The notes beneath the pieces were generated by a model, which was given only the letters and a program-made list of their open reading frames with translations, did not search any database and was not told the origin of the DNA. Below, piece after piece: positions 2,766 through 43,007 of a stretch of DNA of 64,000 nucleotides. Origin of the DNA: Escherichia coli (GTDB taxonomy: Bacteria > Pseudomonadota > Gammaproteobacteria > Enterobacterales > Enterobacteriaceae). Position 1 is the stretch's first letter; each line of letters begins with the position of its first letter. The position numbers and the translations under genes were made by a program. The stretch is taken from assembly GCF_051903065.1 (NCBI RefSeq), contig NZ_CP178440.1; one strand, given 5' to 3'.

Positions 2766-4062
2766 TTACTTAAGCACTATGAAGGTATCATACACCTTCA
2801 TAGTGTACTTTTTTACTGCGCTTTGGGGCTAAATTGTTTTTGTGAATAGCCAGAATATCGTGGCTACGGCGGCAATGGAAATATATGATCTCTGCTGCCA
2901 GAGACTGGAGATGTAATTGGGGGCAGTTTGGATATCGAAAATTATTGTACTATAAGGGGTCCGCTTGAGGGGGCCGCTTGGAAAACGGAAATTTTCCCAC
3001 GCTAAGAGAATTGAGTTGAACGAGTGGTTACATCTAGGCCAGCTAACTCACTGAACGTAAAGGCTGTACGAAATGTTCCGACCGTCCGATAACCATTTGG
3101 CTTACTTCCGTACATTTCCTTGCGTAGATGTACAGAATTGTACGATTTCGGACACCAAAACTGCTGTTGTCCCGGTGCATGAAGCTACTTTCCGGGTTGG
3201 TGGTACTGACTTTGGTGTTCTTAACGACGACGTTTTCAACTCTGAAAATCGCCTCTCTGCACGGGGATTTTTACCCCCCCATAGAGCCGTCATATAAATT
3301 CAAATTATTAACTTTGATGGTAGAATTATCTTAGGTTTGATAAAATTTTGAGCCGTCGCCGTTTACTTCACAGGATTCAATATAATGGCTAAATATACAG
3401 TTTGTGATTACCAATAAACTATTAGAAATAATGGGAATGGTTGTGCCAATCTCTATCTGGAGGTCTTATTGCAGGGAACATCCACCCCATCGTTACACCA
3501 ATACAGAATTGCCCCCGATACAAGACATCCAGACATTAACCTAATAAAAGCGCACCTTGACGAGGGCTTTCAGCAGGCAAAGTCTGAGGGATTAAAAGTA
3601 GAGATTTCAGATTATAAAGAACGTCTTTACCTGTACATTAGAACACCTGGTAATAACCTAATGCAATATTCTGGTTGCAGAGAAAAATAATACAGTCGCG
3701 CTGGATACTCTGACATTGACGCAGTTATATGATTTTCTGGCGTTGGTCAGTAAACCAGCTGCAGCCAGAACGGTGTAGTCCCTGACACAGGCGCCGGTCA
3801 TTCTGTTAACTCATCCACGTATGGGATGAACAGTTGTTTCAGTTTGAAACCAGGGATGCCAGACGGATTTTTGCTGGCGAGTACGAAATCCGTTACGAAC
3901 TTAATGGCCAGACTATTTATGTATTGCGCCTGTGACACACACGAGAAAACAGGTAGATTGTGTGTGAGGGCAACTTTAACATAGCCTGCAGGTGTTAATT
4001 CAGGAGCATTGTTATCAGACCAAATATTTTTCATTCCATTAAATAGTCTTGTAGGGGATAAA

Positions 4063-4344
4063 ATGAATTACGATGAAATAACGAAAATCACTGCAGAACG
4101 TATTAGCGACTACATGACTGAAGCGGTTAATACAGACTCTAAATCTGTTGCGGAAATGTTTCATAACGCTGCATGGGGAGTGCTATCATTGTGGTTTGAA
4201 CTCGTCACAAAAATAGATCTGGATATACATAAAAAGAACAGGTATGCAAGTTATGATTTTAGAAGAAAAATCGAAATGCAGCATGAAGAGTTTCAGAAAA
4301 TGACAGAGCGTGAGCAAGTGCCTTTATTGAAATTGCCTGAATAA
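4063..4344 (+). CDS. Hypothetical protein (93 aa), convergent with parR
   Basis: ORF with ATG at 4063; no family recognised. Confidence 0.4.
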
Positions 4345-5782: not shown

Positions 5783-5960
5783 TTATAAAACTCCTTATGG
5801 TGTTTTTTTGGTGTGTGTTTGGGTATGTTTTGGGTTTTAAGTGGGTTTATTTGTCAAGTTTACCCCATTTTAACCATCAATCAATGATTATTTGTCTTGT
5901 TTTGGTGTTTTATTGGGTTGGGTGTGGGTTGTTTTTGGGTTTTGTTTGGCGGGTAACAAA
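5783..5960. promoter_or_regulatory. parC-like centromere/promoter region upstream of parM (GT-rich short direct repeats)
   Basis: Repeated ttttgg / gggtt(t) units on both sides of the presumed promoter, position relative to parM. Confidence 0.5.
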
Positions 5961-6295
5961 AGATGTCGCCGGGCTCCTCTTTTTACTGCGCCGGCTGACG
6001 CGGCGCGGCAGGAACGCTGCCTGTGGTCAGTGTCCCGCGTCCGGCGGGCACGGGACGGGCGCTTTTACCGCTCCCGGCTGGCGTCAGTGACAGTGTACGC
6101 CAGCCAGTCGCCCTTTCTGATGAACGCCCTTCAAGCCGCTTTCGCGGCATAGCCTTGCCGTCAAACAGACGACGGCTGCGGTATTCCACGGTCGGCCTGA
6201 CCCGTTACCGGACGCGGTGAACAGCCCACAGGCAGCGGGGAACGGGCACCACAGGGGTGCCCTCCCGGTGCCCTCTGTAAGAGAAGGAGGCTTTT

Positions 6296-6979
6296 ATGTC
6301 CCGTTTTATCCTGGGTGACTGCGTGCGAGTTATGGCCACGTTTCCGGACAATGCTGTCGATTTCATCCTCACCGACCCGCCGTATCTCGTCGGTTTCCGT
6401 GACCGTTCCGGGCGCACCATTGCCGGTGACGTTAACGATGACTGGCTGCAACCTGCCAGTAATGAGATGTACCGCGTACTCAAAAAAGACGCGCTGATGG
6501 TGAGTTTCTATGGCTGGAACCGTATTGACCGCTTTATGGCAGCCTGGAAACGCGCCGGATTCAGCGTTGTAGGGCATCTCGTCTTCACCAAAAACTACAC
6601 ATCGAAGGCCGCATATGTGGGCTATCGCCACGAATGCGCCTATATCCTGGCAAAAGGCCGTCCACGTCTGCCACAAAACCCGCTGCCGGACGTGCTGGGC
6701 TGGAAATATTCAGGCAACCGCCATCACCCGACGGAAAAGCCTGTTACCAGCCTGCAACCACTGATTGAGAGCTTCACACACCCGAACGCGATTGTGCTGG
6801 ACCCGTTTGCAGGCAGCGGCTCAACCTGCGTCGCCGCCCTTCAGTCCGGACGCCGGTATATCGGTATCGAGCTGCTTGAACAGTATCACCGTGCCGGACA
6901 GCAACGACTGGCCGCCGTGCAACGGGCCATGCAGCAGGGGGCCGCGAATGATAACTGGTTTGAACCGGAGGCTGCGTAA
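6296..6979 (+). CDS. Orphan DNA methyltransferase, beta-class (DPPY motif near N-terminus, FAGSGST AdoMet motif near C-terminus), N6-adenine or N4-cytosine
   Basis: Motif order IV then I read in translation; no adjacent restriction endonuclease gene. Confidence 0.75.
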   Translation: MSRFILGDCVRVMATFPDNAVDFILTDPPYLVGFRDRSGRTIAGDVNDDWLQPASNEMYRVLKKDALMVSFYGWNRIDRFMAAWKRAGFSVVGHLVFTKNYTSKAAYVGYRHECAYILAKGRPRLPQNPLPDVLGWKYSGNRHHPTEKPVTSLQPLIESFTHPNAIVLDPFAGSGSTCVAALQSGRRYIGIELLEQYHRAGQQRLAAVQRAMQQGAANDNWFEPEAA

Positions 6980-7201
6980 ATGAACTATGCCGGACACGAA
7001 AAACTTCGCGCCGACGTGGCGGAGGTGGCCAACACCATGTGTGACCTTCGGGCCAGGCTGAACGATATGGAGCATCGCTGTCGCTTTGATTCCGATGTGC
7101 TTGTTGAACGCCTGACACGCCAGACGCTGTATCGCGCCAATCGCCTGTTTATGGAGGCGTATACCGAAATTCTGGAACTGGATTCCTGCTTCAAAGATTG
7201 A
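6980..7201 (+). CDS. Hypothetical small protein (73 aa), start overlaps methyltransferase stop (taaATG)
   Basis: ORF; translational coupling geometry. Confidence 0.4.
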   Translation: MNYAGHEKLRADVAEVANTMCDLRARLNDMEHRCRFDSDVLVERLTRQTLYRANRLFMEAYTEILELDSCFKD

Positions 7202-7214
7202 GAAGGAGACGAGA

Positions 7215-7649
7215 ATGTACGGAACATGCGAAACGCTCTGCCGGGAGCTGGCAGCGCAGTATCCGGGAGACGCGCCGCTGATGCTGGTTGTCTGGTCCCC
7301 GGAAGAGATCCAGGCCCTCGCTGACGGAATGGATATTTCCCTGTCCGATCATGAAATCAGGACCGTCCTGGCGCGCCTGGAGGACATCCCGGAAGACCAG
7401 CGAATTGAGTCCGGTATTTCTTCCGCCGCGGCGATGGAGATTATCAGCAACGTGAGCGAAAACCGCCAGGTGACCGTTCCGGCTGAACTGCTGGCGTCCC
7501 TGATTCAGACCGCTGAACAGGCATTGTGGAAACGTGAATGGGCCGCCCGGGATCATGGCCTCGCCGTCCCGGAATGCGTCACCCGCCGTCAGGCGGTGGT
7601 TAATCAGGCCCGCACCCTGCTGAAAAACAACACACGCGAAAACGACTGA
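7215..7649 (+). CDS. Hypothetical leading-region protein (144 aa)
   Basis: ORF with RBS gaaggagacgagaATG; conserved-hypothetical of IncF leading regions as far as I recall. Confidence 0.5.
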   Translation: MYGTCETLCRELAAQYPGDAPLMLVVWSPEEIQALADGMDISLSDHEIRTVLARLEDIPEDQRIESGISSAAAMEIISNVSENRQVTVPAELLASLIQTAEQALWKREWAARDHGLAVPECVTRRQAVVNQARTLLKNNTREND

Positions 7650-38786: not shown

Positions 38787-39095
38787 ATGGAAAAGAAATT
38801 AAGCAGTAAATACATTCATATGTATATGAGTATATCCCGAGTGTTCATTCGTTTGACAGGAAATGTATTAAAACTGTTTCCTTTTGCTATGGTGATATGC
38901 CCTGTGGTGTGGTTTTATCTTTGCCCTGAACATATTATCTCAGACATTGTTAACGACTGGCAGGATGCAGATACACTGGAAAAAATACTGCTTGTCAAAC
39001 TGTATCTGAAGACGGTTCTTATTCTGACAGTGGTAAGCGTTGTTGTCTTGTATCTTTCGTCAGATAAGTTTATGCCTGTTAAACGCAGGAAATGA
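38787..39095 (+). CDS. Hypothetical small membrane protein (two predicted hydrophobic helices), AT-rich
   Basis: ORF; hydrophobic stretches LKLFPFAMVICPVVWFYL and LKTVLILTVVSVVVLYL. Confidence 0.5.
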   Translation: MEKKLSSKYIHMYMSISRVFIRLTGNVLKLFPFAMVICPVVWFYLCPEHIISDIVNDWQDADTLEKILLVKLYLKTVLILTVVSVVVLYLSSDKFMPVKRRK

Positions 39096-39157: not shown

Positions 39158-39679
39158 ATGGGATTTTTCTCGTTTTTACGAAAGATAAGTAATAAAGAAA
39201 AAGGGGTGGTTATCTATGAGAAGCAGTGGTTCTCACTGCTGGAAAAGGTGAGTGCTTTTGATGAGGTCAGACAATGGGCTGAAAGTAATGGTGGAGCATA
39301 TTATCCTCTGCTGGAGTGTCGTCGGCTTACAGACAGTGAAAATGTCAGGAAATCAGAGGATATACTGAACCGACTGGAGTTTATTGACAGAAGATTTCGG
39401 GAATTCATCAGCATTATGTCTGAACATATTAATAATGATAAAACTAAATCCATGTGGGAGAGGGAATTGTCTGAATATCCACCGGAAAAAATATACCAGG
39501 TCCGGAGAGAGGGAGAACATCTGTCATTAAAAAATTATGGTGATGATATTACTCTGAACAGAGATACCGCCGTGGCTACGGTGCAGATTACTGTCAGCAG
39601 AAAATGCATTACTCAGGAAGAAATGGATGAATTATATGCATTGTCTGAGAGACTGAAAGAAAAGTGCGCCGGTAATTAA
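39158..39679 (+). CDS. Hypothetical soluble protein (173 aa), AT-rich
   Basis: ORF; no recognised motif. Confidence 0.5.
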   Translation: MGFFSFLRKISNKEKGVVIYEKQWFSLLEKVSAFDEVRQWAESNGGAYYPLLECRRLTDSENVRKSEDILNRLEFIDRRFREFISIMSEHINNDKTKSMWERELSEYPPEKIYQVRREGEHLSLKNYGDDITLNRDTAVATVQITVSRKCITQEEMDELYALSERLKEKCAGN

Positions 39680-39690
39680 ATTATATCACT

Positions 39691-40344
39691 GTGCCGGGAG
39701 ATGATATGAGCCGGAAAATATTTGAACTTTTTGCCCTGACAGCAGGACTGTTTATTTCTGCCCACGCTTCGGAAAATGTGAATACACCCGAAAACCGCCA
39801 GTTCCTGAAGCAGCAGGAAACACTGAGTCAGCAGTTACGTGAAAAACCGGACACACAGCTGCAGGCATGGGCAGAACAGCAGGTCAGGGCGAATCCCCTT
39901 CAGCATTCCGATAACCAGTTTCTCGATGAACTGGTCCGTAAACAGCAGGCTGCTCAGAAGGATAAACCACAGCAGGGTGCCGTGTATTTTGTGTCGTTTT
40001 CCATACCCGAAGAGGGGCTGAAACGGATGCTGGGAGAAACCCGGCACTACGGTATTCCGGCCACACTGCGGGGTATGGTGAACAACGACCTGAAAGCCAC
40101 GGCTGAAGCAGTGCTGTCTCTGGTGAAAGACGGTGCGACCGATGGTGTTCAGATTGACCCGACGCTGTTTTCACAGTACGGCATTCGCAGCGTGCCGGCT
40201 CTGGTGGTGTTCTGCAGCCAGGGGCACGACATCATCCGGGGAAATCTGCGCGTCAGACAGGCGCTGGAGAAAGTGGCCGCCACAGGAGACTGCCGGCAGG
40301 TGGCTCAGGGACTGCTGGACGGCACCGGGGATAAGTCGCAATGA
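39691..40344 (+). CDS. trbC: TrbC
   Basis: ORF with signal peptide; gene order. Confidence 0.8.
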   Translation: MPGDDMSRKIFELFALTAGLFISAHASENVNTPENRQFLKQQETLSQQLREKPDTQLQAWAEQQVRANPLQHSDNQFLDELVRKQQAAQKDKPQQGAVYFVSFSIPEEGLKRMLGETRHYGIPATLRGMVNNDLKATAEAVLSLVKDGATDGVQIDPTLFSQYGIRSVPALVVFCSQGHDIIRGNLRVRQALEKVAATGDCRQVAQGLLDGTGDKSQ

Positions 40345-40712
40345 GTTTACCTGCAGGCTATTACCGGATTGACCCGGACATCCGTGCACTGGTGGCCGCG
40401 ATGAACGTTCACGGATTTCGTACATATGCGTCCTGTCAGGGGCATGGTTTCCCTGTTACAAAGCTGCCGCCTTATATCGCCTTTGCCTGTCCGGTAAAAA
40501 TGGCTGCCCTTCTGGAGCAGCGACTGCGGCAGGATGCTGAATCAGCAATACCACGTCTGACATGGGGATGGTCGGTGAAGGGGACTTTTAACAGTGATTT
40601 TCAGCTTTGCTTCCGGCTTCAGCCTGAAGGCCCTCATCACTGGTATCACCGGTACTGTCGCCGCTCACTGCGTGCAGACTTCAGGACGCTGGTCCGATTA
40701 GTGAATCCGTAA
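40341..40712 (+). CDS. Hypothetical protein (123 aa) between trbC and traN
   Basis: ORF, translationally coupled to trbC. Confidence 0.5.
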   Translation: MSLPAGYYRIDPDIRALVAAMNVHGFRTYASCQGHGFPVTKLPPYIAFACPVKMAALLEQRLRQDAESAIPRLTWGWSVKGTFNSDFQLCFRLQPEGPHHWYHRYCRRSLRADFRTLVRLVNP

Positions 40713-40734
40713 ATCTGTTCCCGTTAAGGAGGCA

Positions 40735-41160
40735 TTGATGGCGCTGACAAAGAAACAGCGGGAAAAACTGCGTATGAAATTCGGTGGCCGTTGTGCGTAC
40801 TGCGGCTGTGAACTGCCGGAGAAAGGATGGCATGCCGACCATGTTCAGGCGGTGCTCCGCAAGTCAGAGCAGTGCATGAAGGCTGCAGAAAAGCGCATTT
40901 TCAGGCTGAAATCCACCGGTGATGTTTTCAGACCGGAGGCCGACTGTCCGGAAAACCTCGTCCCGGCCTGTGCGCCGTGCAACCTGCTGAAAACAACATA
41001 TTCGCTGGAGATGTTCAGAACGCAGGTGTCCCTGCAGGTTGAACGGGGGCGAAGAAGCAGCGTGAATTTCAGGACCGCAGAACGGTTCGGGCTGATTCAG
41101 GTGGTGAACAAACCAGTCGTGTTCTGGTTTGAGCAATATCAGAGGGAGAGTGAGGTATGA
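40735..41160 (+). CDS. HNH endonuclease-family protein
   Basis: CAYCGC ... HADH ... CAPCN zinc/HNH motif pattern. Confidence 0.7.
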   Translation: MMALTKKQREKLRMKFGGRCAYCGCELPEKGWHADHVQAVLRKSEQCMKAAEKRIFRLKSTGDVFRPEADCPENLVPACAPCNLLKTTYSLEMFRTQVSLQVERGRRSSVNFRTAERFGLIQVVNKPVVFWFEQYQRESEV

Positions 41161-43007
41161 AACGTCTTCTGCCATTGCTGCTGGGGCTGGCAGTCAGTGT
41201 GGCACAGGCTGACAGCAACAGTGATTACCGGGCGGGTTCTGATTTTGCCCGTCAGATTCAGGGGCAGGGTACAGGCAGTATTCAGGGCTTTAAGCCACAG
41301 GAGAGTATCCCCGGCTATAACGCTAATCCGGACGAGACAAAATATTACGGTGGTGTGACTGCTGGCGGGGATGGCGGCCTGAAAAATGACGGCACCACGG
41401 AATGGGCGACCGGTGAAACCGGAAAAACTATCACAGAGTCATTCATGAACAAGCCGAAAGACATTCTGTCACCGGATGCACCGTTCATTCAGACCGGCAG
41501 GGATGTGGTGAACAGGGCTGACAGCATTGTAGGAAACACAGGCCAGCAGTGTAGTGCACAGCAGATAAACCGCAGTGAATTTACAAACTATACCTGTGAA
41601 CGGGACACGATGGTGGAGGAGTTCTGCACACGGACTGCCAGGATCACCGGAGACTGGAAATACACGGATGAATATCGTGAGGTGACGATACCGCACTCAC
41701 AGTTCCGGTTCAGTATGAACGGGCTGAAACTGGTGTTCAGTGTCACGGCTCCGGTAACCGGTACAGTGGAAAGTGCATCATTGTCTGTATACGCCGCTTT
41801 TTTCTTCCTGAATTCTCGTTATACCTTCATGAATTCAACGTTCAATGTTGGCCTGGTAAACGGGCAGTCGGGTACTTTCCCCTTGTCCGGGGCGACAGGT
41901 TTGCAGGTGACACAGGGGCAGGTACTGACCGGCAGTGGCTGTACTGCTAACGGTAACTGTCTTTCTGGCGGGAACGGTGACCGACAGGTTTATGAGAAAC
42001 TAGCCAGCGGCGCGTCCACCTTTACGCTGAAACTCAGGATGAAGGTCCGTGATAAAGAATGGGTTCCACGGGTGGAGTGGGTGGAGAGTTGTCCGTTTAA
42101 TAAAGCGGATGGCGTGCTGAAAGGTACTGAGTGTTCAGAGCCGGGTGGTACGAAAACCGGAGTGATGGAAGGTAAACCCTGGAGCATCACACAGGCATGC
42201 TGGGCATACCGGGATAAATATGTCACTCAGTCCGCAGATAACGGCACCTGTCAGAAATATGTCGATAATCCGGCCTGTACGCTGGCCTCACGTCAGTGCG
42301 CGTTTTATTCCGATGAGGGAACCTGTCTGCATGAGTATGCCACGTATTCCTGCGAGTCAAAAACATCAGGAAAAGTGATGGTCTGTGGTGGTGATGTCTT
42401 CTGCCTTGACGGTGAATGCGATAAGGCACAGAGCGGAAAAAGCAGTGATTTTGGTGAGGCAGTATCACAGCTGGCTGCGCTTGCCGCCGCAGGTAAGGAT
42501 GTTGCCGCCCTGAATGGTGTGGATGTCAGGGCTTTCACGGGCGAGGCGAAATTCTGCCGTAAGGCCGCAGCCGGCTTCAGTAACTGCTGTAAGGATGGTG
42601 GCTGGGGTCAGGATGTGGGGCTGGCGAAGTGCAACAGTGAAGAAAAGGCACTGGGAAAGGCAAAGGACAACAAACTGACGGTGAGTGTGGGCGAGTTCTG
42701 TTCGAAAAAGGTGCTGGGCGTCTGCCTGCAGAAAAAGCGCAGCTACTGCCAGTTTGATTCGAAGCTGGCGCAGATAGTCCAGCAGCAGGGGCGTAACGGG
42801 CAGTTGCGTATCGGGTTTGGCAGCGCCAAAAGTCCTGACTGTCGGGGGATTACGGTTGATGAGCTGCAGAAAATTCAGTTCGACAGACTGGATTTCACTA
42901 ACTTCTACGAAGACCTGATGAATAACCAGAAAATCCCGGACAGTGGCGTTCTGACGCAGAAAGTGAAAGAGCAGATTGCTGACCAGCTGAAACAGGCAGG
43001 GCAGTAA
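41157..43007 (+). CDS. traN: TraN mating-pair stabilisation outer-membrane protein
   Basis: 616-aa Cys-rich ORF with signal peptide. Confidence 0.9.
   Translation: MKRLLPLLLGLAVSVAQADSNSDYRAGSDFARQIQGQGTGSIQGFKPQESIPGYNANPDETKYYGGVTAGGDGGLKNDGTTEWATGETGKTITESFMNKPKDILSPDAPFIQTGRDVVNRADSIVGNTGQQCSAQQINRSEFTNYTCERDTMVEEFCTRTARITGDWKYTDEYREVTIPHSQFRFSMNGLKLVFSVTAPVTGTVESASLSVYAAFFFLNSRYTFMNSTFNVGLVNGQSGTFPLSGATGLQVTQGQVLTGSGCTANGNCLSGGNGDRQVYEKLASGASTFTLKLRMKVRDKEWVPRVEWVESCPFNKADGVLKGTECSEPGGTKTGVMEGKPWSITQACWAYRDKYVTQSADNGTCQKYVDNPACTLASRQCAFYSDEGTCLHEYATYSCESKTSGKVMVCGGDVFCLDGECDKAQSGKSSDFGEAVSQLAALAAAGKDVAALNGVDVRAFTGEAKFCRKAAAGFSNCCKDGGWGQDVGLAKCNSEEKALGKAKDNKLTVSVGEFCSKKVLGVCLQKKRSYCQFDSKLAQIVQQQGRNGQLRIGFGSAKSPDCRGITVDELQKIQFDRLDFTNFYEDLMNNQKIPDSGVLTQKVKEQIADQLKQAGQ

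Follow-up and report, generated by a model that had tools for sequence, protein, structure and literature searches.

What role is played by two small genes which lie within a conjugation operon and yet are absent from plasmid F, where the same operon functions without them? The question is raised by a 64,000 nt stretch of Escherichia coli DNA (assembly GCF_051903065.1, contig NZ_CP178440.1), referred to here as the window, whose positions serve as coordinates throughout. It holds the transfer (tra) operon of an IncFII F-like resistance plasmid of a very common type. Between the core genes trbC and traN lie an open reading frame (ORF) of 123 aa, termed ORF123, and a gene encoding an HNH (His-Me finger) nuclease. 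The interpretation put forward with moderate confidence is that the two are independent, non-essential passenger genes which occupy a variable slot of the operon and are kept there by selection, each with the activity proposed for it below. Both are dispensable for F-type mating, because F conjugates without them. An earlier sequence-only reading of this DNA had stated that the HNH gene does not belong to the core F set; this is confirmed, as F carries neither gene and its trbC overlaps traN directly.

A variable slot with independent occupants

Approximately 4,611 plasmid records match across trbC-traN. Any part of the insert is present in 873 of these and at least 80% of it in 537. In separate searches of plasmid records, ORF123 was found in 715 and the HNH gene in 2,591, with 854 of the latter matching at least 80% of the gene. 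The junction between trbC and traN occurs in empty, HNH-only, ORF123-only and two-gene states. An empty allele, in which trbC overlaps traN directly as in F, is found in plasmid p2 of strain W224N (locus L012). The Salmonella plasmid pSLT has the HNH gene without ORF123, an arrangement seen in hundreds of records. Other F-like plasmids carry ORF123 only, followed by a different, antisense ORF of 73 aa before traN, and thus the same slot holds different cargo in different lineages. This antisense ORF (3870-4091 of locus L004, minus strand) encodes a zinc ribbon (CxxC...CxxC) together with a membrane helix, and a similar spacer is present in locus L003.

Both family profiles were scanned over 106 loci. 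A relative of the HNH protein was found in 92 and a relative of ORF123 in 14, with both occurring together only in the lineage of plasmid pHN7A8. In pSLT, a six-codon ORF, ATGACATTCCCTGCGGAATAA, is located right after trbC (approximately 3461-3481 of locus L002) and resembles the start of ORF123. This stub suggests a deletion scar of ORF123, in which case the two-gene arrangement would be old, preceding the split of pSLT and IncFII, and ORF123 would have been deleted in pSLT.

The distribution bears directly on the idea that the two genes form one module. This could resemble restriction-modification, with a TYW3-like methyltransferase protecting and the HNH nuclease cutting, or toxin and immunity, with ORF123 neutralising the nuclease. 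The genes are adjacent, on the same strand and 25 nt apart in approximately 537 plasmids, a methyltransferase-like fold stands beside a nuclease, and the pSLT stub suggests that the pairing is old. However, pSLT has the nuclease alone in hundreds of records, which indicates that the HNH gene is tolerated by itself, and ORF123 is found alone in other plasmids. None of about 90 other HNH-family loci contains an ORF123 relative within 4-6 kb, and no HNH gene is present at any of 11 other ORF123-family loci. The separate occurrence of the genes rules out an obligate pair, whether toxin-immunity or restriction-modification, and both were rejected on distribution, with co-occurrence in one lineage among the 106 loci. 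The single-module interpretation is largely refuted in this way and is considered very improbable. The sequence-only reading had described the genes as coupled, and this stands for position and translation. It does not hold for function, as the genes are separate in pSLT and other F-like plasmids and co-occur nowhere else in the 106 loci.

Gene layout and expression

As described previously from the sequence, two ORFs are present between trbC and traN on the + strand. The genes of the locus are as follows.

39706..40344, + strand: trbC, core F-type pilus assembly gene, upstream (NCBIfam PRK13730, E=1.7e-126; RefSeq annotation of the identical pHN7A8)
40341..40712, + strand: ORF123, 123 aa, predicted TYW3/Taw3-like and cytoplasmic
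40726..40732, + strand: strong Shine-Dalgarno sequence AAGGAGG in the 25-nt spacer between ORF123 and HNH, 5 nt ahead of the HNH start codon ATG (read from the sequence)
40738..41160, + strand: HNH (His-Me finger) nuclease gene, 140 aa, phrog_2118
41157..43007, + strand: traN, core mating-pair stabilisation gene, downstream (ORF; RefSeq annotation)

The ATG of ORF123 overlaps the stop codon of trbC (ATGA, 40341-40344), and the stop codon of the HNH gene overlaps the start of traN in the same manner (ATGA, 41157-41160). An earlier GTG start is possible for trbC at 39691. The HNH ORF has an alternative TTG start at 40735, which would give 141 aa in place of the 140 aa read from the ATG. Neither promoter-like nor terminator-like sites were found on the + strand inside the two-gene stretch. 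ORF123 and HNH therefore seem to share the tra transcript, and a separate transcription unit was rejected on the same ground.

The 820-bp insert stretch between trbC and traN is 100% identical to that of pHN7A8 and of many E. coli, Klebsiella and Salmonella plasmids. In pHN7A8 the two products are named in RefSeq as ‘hypothetical protein’ (WP_000056336.1) and ‘HNH endonuclease signature motif containing protein’ (WP_001229309.1). Both genes are thus already annotated.

Two more passenger ORFs are located between traU and trbC of the window. The first (38787-39095) encodes a hydrophobic protein of 102 aa and has a guanine-cytosine (GC) content of 36.9%; the second (39158-39679) encodes 173 aa at 39.8% GC. 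The tra genes around them have approximately 55% GC. Both are missing in F, in which 8 bp separate traU from trbC, and neither has a match in Pfam, NCBIfam, PHROGs or PADLOC.

Selection on the two genes

The ratio of nonsynonymous to synonymous substitution rates (dN/dS) was computed between the window plasmid and diverged relatives. For the HNH gene it is 0.085 against pSLT and 0.059 against Salmonella phage g341c. For ORF123 it is 0.19-0.20 against two ORF123-only plasmids. These values are comparable to those of traU, trbC, traN and traF in the same plasmids (0.03-0.18). ORF123 and HNH are real genes under purifying selection.

A contrary view is that both are decaying remnants without present function. 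Their dispensability for F-type conjugation and their patchy distribution agree with this, as do occasional disrupted-looking copies, such as one record which matches just 71% of the query, in two places. The reading frames are nevertheless intact and dN/dS is well under 1 for both genes, which contradicts decay. The catalytic residues of the HNH protein are all invariant, the signature of ORF123 is invariant or nearly so in 60 diverse members, and confident structure models were obtained for both proteins. The suggestion that the HNH gene may be a homing endonuclease remnant is not supported, in view of the low dN/dS. The gene is intact, with a dN/dS of 0.06-0.09, and its full length is conserved from plasmids to T4-like phages. 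That both genes are remnants is scarcely credible.

Irregular copies of the region were also recorded. In the Klebsiella plasmid NZ_CP084498.1 the match to the region ends at query position 582 and resumes elsewhere in the record. In the E. coli plasmid NZ_CP053082.1 an IS3-family transposase is annotated under the trbC-traN match.

The HNH nuclease

The motifs CAYCGC, HADH and CAPCN, noticed previously in the translation, are exact (C19AYCGC, H32ADH35 and C78APCN82). Their positions are as follows.

40792..40992, + strand: HNH catalytic core (alignments of 41 and 72 relatives)
40792-40803, + strand: C19xxC22
40831-40842, + strand: H32-A-D34-H35
40954-40956, + strand: N73
40969-40992, + strand: C78xxC81-N82..K85

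A variable insert, residues 36-72, separates the DH and N elements. The protein scores slightly below threshold in Pfam and matches phrog_2118 with E=8.7e-58. It has 1,343 database homologues, and 178 phage genomes were matched, with full-length matches to phage proteins at 27-87% amino-acid identity. An alignment of 41 sequences, with identity down to 37%, included phages of Burkholderia, Acinetobacter, Vibrio, Caulobacter and Streptococcus as well as the T4-like RB49. Residues C19, C22, D34, H35, N73, C78, C81, N82 and K85 are invariant in this alignment and likewise in 72 distinct close relatives; no catalytic residue is degenerate in either set.

The DH element, in which the catalytic histidine of the beta-hairpin (the general base) follows an aspartate, is present as H32-A-D34-H35. 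The asparagines of the second and third HNH motifs, whose residues place the hairpin and the metal, are N73 and N82, both invariant. Two CxxC pairs, C19/C22 and C78/C81, are also invariant and provide the structural zinc site of the zinc-finger subclass, in the arrangement described for it (PMC3592412). The AlphaFold model (predicted local distance difference test, pLDDT, 92) has the predicted beta-beta-alpha-metal fold and matches Cas9-type HNH domains, with Gme HNH and GVE2 HNH among the fold matches. By every sequence and fold criterion the gene is predicted to encode an intact and competent HNH nuclease. Site- and strand-specific nicking is considered its most likely putative activity, because the tested small phage [CxxC]2 HNH enzymes are nickases of this type (PMC3592412).

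The relatives are found in diverse settings. In Escherichia phage Bas77 (1-2678 of locus L013) an 81%-identical protein is encoded by the first gene. Two small ORFs and the gene for the terminase large subunit follow immediately, an order known from HNH enzymes associated with packaging. It is curious that nearly the same protein occurs both in a plasmid tra operon and in the packaging module of a phage. A role in packaging of the HK97 gp74 type, whose gene adjoins the terminase genes and the cos site, was rejected for the plasmid copy, as its neighbours are trbC and traN and terminase adjacency is seen just in Bas77-like phages. A P22-like phage carries an 87%-identical relative in its ea region, which is non-essential. 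In other phages the neighbouring genes encode a ligase, helicase, primase or methyltransferase. The relatives in IncHI2 and large MOBH plasmids are located outside the transfer genes (5879-6412 of locus L105 and 5962-6390 of locus L106). The neighbours at these two loci are of the establishment-region type, comprising a PAPS-reductase family protein, Dam methyltransferase, RdgC, DnaN, DUF2726 and DUF4942.

Possible homing or conjugation-linked function

The main rival explanation for the HNH gene is that it encodes a free-standing homing endonuclease. Such an enzyme would cut the empty trbC/traN junction of related, co-resident F-like plasmids and be copied in by recombinational repair, with ORF123 merely adjacent. 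The polymorphism of presence and absence at one exact junction, with the ATGA overlaps kept on both sides in backbones as diverged as IncFII and pSLT, is consistent with homing. The synonymous divergence (dS) of the HNH gene between the window and pSLT is 0.55, below that of traU, trbC, traN and traF (0.85-1.43). The family also has a scattered distribution over phages and plasmids which are not related to one another, and for some members the annotation is homing endonuclease. Expression of tra is transiently de-repressed in new transconjugants, the moment at which an incoming plasmid could meet a resident allele.

Co-conversion of the flanks was assessed by sliding-window identity in one pair, the window against pSLT, whose old divergence makes this a weak test. 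Identity is 70-84% in the immediate flanks and rises to 90-93% solely in the HNH gene, over its 5′ two-thirds. No raised similarity extends into the trbC and traN flanks of this pair, and the peak over the catalytic half fits protein constraint as well. A co-conversion tract, not being seen in this comparison, was rejected as evidence of homing. The 140-aa protein contains no recognisable sequence-reading module, and members of the same family occupy many sites which are unrelated to one another. Every Krischvirus record listed in the spread sample has a member, so that the family is not sporadic there. For a gene that is purely selfish, a dN/dS of 0.06-0.09 is low. The co-residence of related F-like plasmids is also restricted by entry exclusion and incompatibility. 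Overall, homing is possible, if unlikely.

Recent capture of the plasmid gene from a phage was also rejected. The dS against the closest phage gene is 1.5 and thus saturated, despite a protein identity of 87%.

A dedicated conjugation-linked function of the nuclease has also been considered. This could be the processing of DNA in donor or transconjugant, or the defence of cells bearing pili against incoming DNA, pilus-specific or other. The protective version would explain co-regulation with the pilus. In more than 800 plasmids the gene is embedded in, and translationally coupled to, genes for the pilus and mating-pair formation, and it is under strong purifying selection. There are weak matches to the defence effectors PtuB and retron HNH; these PADLOC and NCBIfam matches, however, are far below the family thresholds and cover generic HNH motifs only. 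F and most F-like plasmids conjugate without the gene, and the family resides mostly in phages, or in parts of plasmids which are not related to transfer. This explanation is regarded as distinctly improbable.

ORF123 and its family

The 123-aa ORF had been called uncharacterised. Single-sequence searches of Pfam, NCBIfam, PHROGs, PADLOC and the PDB returned nothing usable. A profile search of 1.84 billion representatives gave 450 clusters at E<=0.001 and 186 at E<=1e-10. Family conservation is centred on T28-x-x-S31-C32-x-G34-H35, together with D/E11, P44-Y45, F48, W77 and D113. Among 60 diverse members the threonine is kept in 57, the serine in 57, the cysteine in 58, the glycine in 59 and the histidine in 58 (arginine in 2), with D/E11 in 56. 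The positions concerned in the window are as follows.

40371-40373, + strand: codon of the conserved acidic residue D11
40422..40445, + strand: ORF123 signature T28-Y-A-S-C32-Q-G-H35, counterpart of the TYW3 motif (S/T)xSSCxGR (motif alignment with TYW3 chains)

The TYW3/Taw3 enzymes have a novel alpha/beta fold which comprises an N-terminal extension, an SHS2 part and a RAGNYA part. The best PDB sequence match of the ORF123 family profile is the TYW3-like AF_2059 (E=0.026), with the DPDI element and the SC-x-G loop aligned in register. Weak matches to Pfam TYW3 occur in 15 of 60 relatives (best E=0.0034), all below the gathering cut-off, and ORF123 itself has none. The AlphaFold model of ORF123 has a pLDDT of 91. 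Foldseek comparison with viral models found similar folds in uncharacterised jumbo-phage proteins. Profile alignment and modelling together suggest that ORF123 is a small, predicted cytoplasmic protein with a TYW3/Taw3-like fold. No Pfam domains were found in ten longer members of the family. One of these ten, a protein of 339 aa (1164-2183 of locus L103), contains two ORF123-like stretches in one chain and is encoded beside a TraI_2_C relaxase fragment.

In the survey of genomic context, 12 loci were inspected singly; several were on short contigs and about nine were informative. In F-type tra operons the family occupies three different positions. One is the trbC/traN slot of the window. In another F-type operon (locus L104) a relative lies between traU and trbC, and in a diverged F-type operon (locus L102) two tandem paralogues (6648-6971 and 7001-7405) are found just upstream of traH. 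A RelB/ParE-type toxin-antitoxin pair is embedded slightly further upstream of these paralogues. A further relative shares a contig with a TrwC relaxase and TraG/TraH/TraF, and another closes a type IV pilus operon. Others are found beside PilI, beside TraI_2_C and in integrase islands. The ORF123 family therefore recurs, at varied positions, inside operons for mating-pair formation, both on conjugative plasmids and on integrative elements. This repeated reappearance is the most interesting result of the analysis. ORF123 is the more informative of the two genes, and both its predicted TYW3-like fold and its recurrence in conjugation operons had been overlooked in the sequence-only reading.

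Proposed functions and points against them

As independent passengers of the trbC/traN slot, both genes would be expressed on the long tra transcript with their translation coupled to that of their neighbours. The HNH protein would be a metal-dependent enzyme which nicks or cuts DNA, made whenever the tra operon is on, including a burst in fresh transconjugants. It may be retained because it acts on DNA when mobile elements compete, or because it takes part in DNA processing, and would not be part of the mating machine. ORF123 may bind S-adenosylmethionine (SAM) or a related nucleotide, with Cys32 as a candidate residue for group transfer. A bolder proposal is that its family is a catalytically active, SAM-using offshoot of TYW3 and the first branch in bacterial mobile elements. 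It would modify nucleic acid or protein, such as host tRNA, the transferred strand or a pilus component, and so affect transfer or establishment. This proposal is doubtful.

Several points weigh against the interpretation of two independent passengers with these activities. A weak functional interplay of the genes may exist, since the arrangement looks old from the pSLT stub and persists in more than 500 plasmids. The sample of ORF123-family contexts is small, with about nine informative loci, of which approximately seven are related to conjugation. The strong sequence constraint of the HNH family, seen in plasmids as well as in widely differing phages, points to a particular conserved function. 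For ORF123, the essential arginine of the TYW3 signature is replaced by histidine in 58 of 60 members (arginine in 2). The column (approximately residues 49-51) aligned with the SAM-carboxylate histidine of SsTaw3 is variable in the family, leaving no conserved counterpart. With 123 aa against about 190-210, the protein has approximately 60% of the TYW3 length. The use of SAM by ORF123 is for these reasons a guess. In addition, no biochemical or genetic test of ORF123 or HNH was found in the searchable literature. Literature searches, whose terms partly matched unrelated words, found no paper on these ORFs, on HNH genes in F-like tra operons or on bacterial TYW3-like proteins.

Significance

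Plasmids of the pHN7A8 type and Salmonella pSLT rank among the principal carriers of genes for resistance and virulence, and co-expressed cargo of their tra operons is therefore of practical interest. The plasmid HNH gene is a known kind of gene in a known kind of place, and the result mostly clarifies its status. The gene looks active and is an ordinary member of a nuclease family of phages and plasmids; it occupies a variable slot and does not add a new component to the mating machine. Of the two genes, only ORF123 is modestly new. It is a useful lead, as the predicted TYW3-like fold with its conserved cysteine loop offers a first structural handle on an unannotated family of at least 450 clusters. 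If ORF123 were indeed an enzyme, it would represent a new accessory activity in conjugative elements and would extend a rare class of methyltransferase into bacteria.

Comparison with known systems

The two genes resemble the non-essential small tra genes of F (trbA, artA, trbE, trbJ and trbH), which are likewise small and located among essential genes for the pilus and mating pair. Those genes are variable in F-like plasmids and dispensable for transfer (PMC5102898). Unlike them, ORF123 and HNH are absent from F, have recognisable enzymatic folds and belong to families which extend far beyond F-like plasmids. Neither gene is mentioned in a comparative study of the conjugation regions of F-like plasmids.

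The closest counterparts of the nuclease are the small zinc-site HNH proteins of phages (phrog_2118; the [CxxC]2 nickases N.phiGamma and Gme HNH; the HK97 gp74 type next to terminase), which have the same core with two CxxC pairs and DH...N...N. In Dhillonvirus-like phages an 81%-identical protein is encoded just upstream of the terminase genes. The plasmid gene, in contrast, is located in a transfer operon with no terminase nearby, and most relatives differ from the terminase-linked type in occupying early, replication or accessory regions. The plasmid protein is further distinguished by the insert of approximately 37 residues between DH and N and by a conserved C-terminal helical part (NFRTAERFG...FWFE). 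The free-standing homing endonucleases of phages, I-HmuI and the mob genes of T-even phages, are likewise stand-alone HNH proteins wedged between conserved genes. The plasmid gene shares with them its presence or absence at one site and its spread over unrelated mobile elements. It differs in having no recognisable DNA-binding extension, no co-conversion tract visible in the comparison with pSLT, and strong purifying selection.

For ORF123, the best PDB profile match of the family is to the TYW3/Taw3 tRNA-yW N4-methyltransferases (PF02676; 1TLJ, 2DRV, 2DVK and 2QG3). In SsTaw3, D25 contacts the SAM sulfonium, H73 at the end of strand 3 binds the SAM carboxylate, and the signature (S/T)xSSCxGR contains an essential cysteine and arginine (PMC5311493). 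The N-terminal aspartate is kept, with D11 of ORF123 in ‘IDPDI’ aligned to ‘LDPDI’ of SsTaw3 and D/E in 56 of 60 members. The signature is kept in part, as T-Y-A-S-C-Q-G-H: the threonine, second serine, cysteine and glycine are found in 57-59 of 60 members, and the first serine is replaced by alanine in 52 of 60. TYW3 hosts are archaea and eukaryotes, whereas ORF123 resides in the mobile elements of bacteria. Bacteria are not known to make wybutosine. With the histidine missing, the signature partial and the length short, ORF123 has a predicted TYW3-like scaffold and is to be filed as a new, reduced variant of the fold class, not as a member of the TYW3 family.

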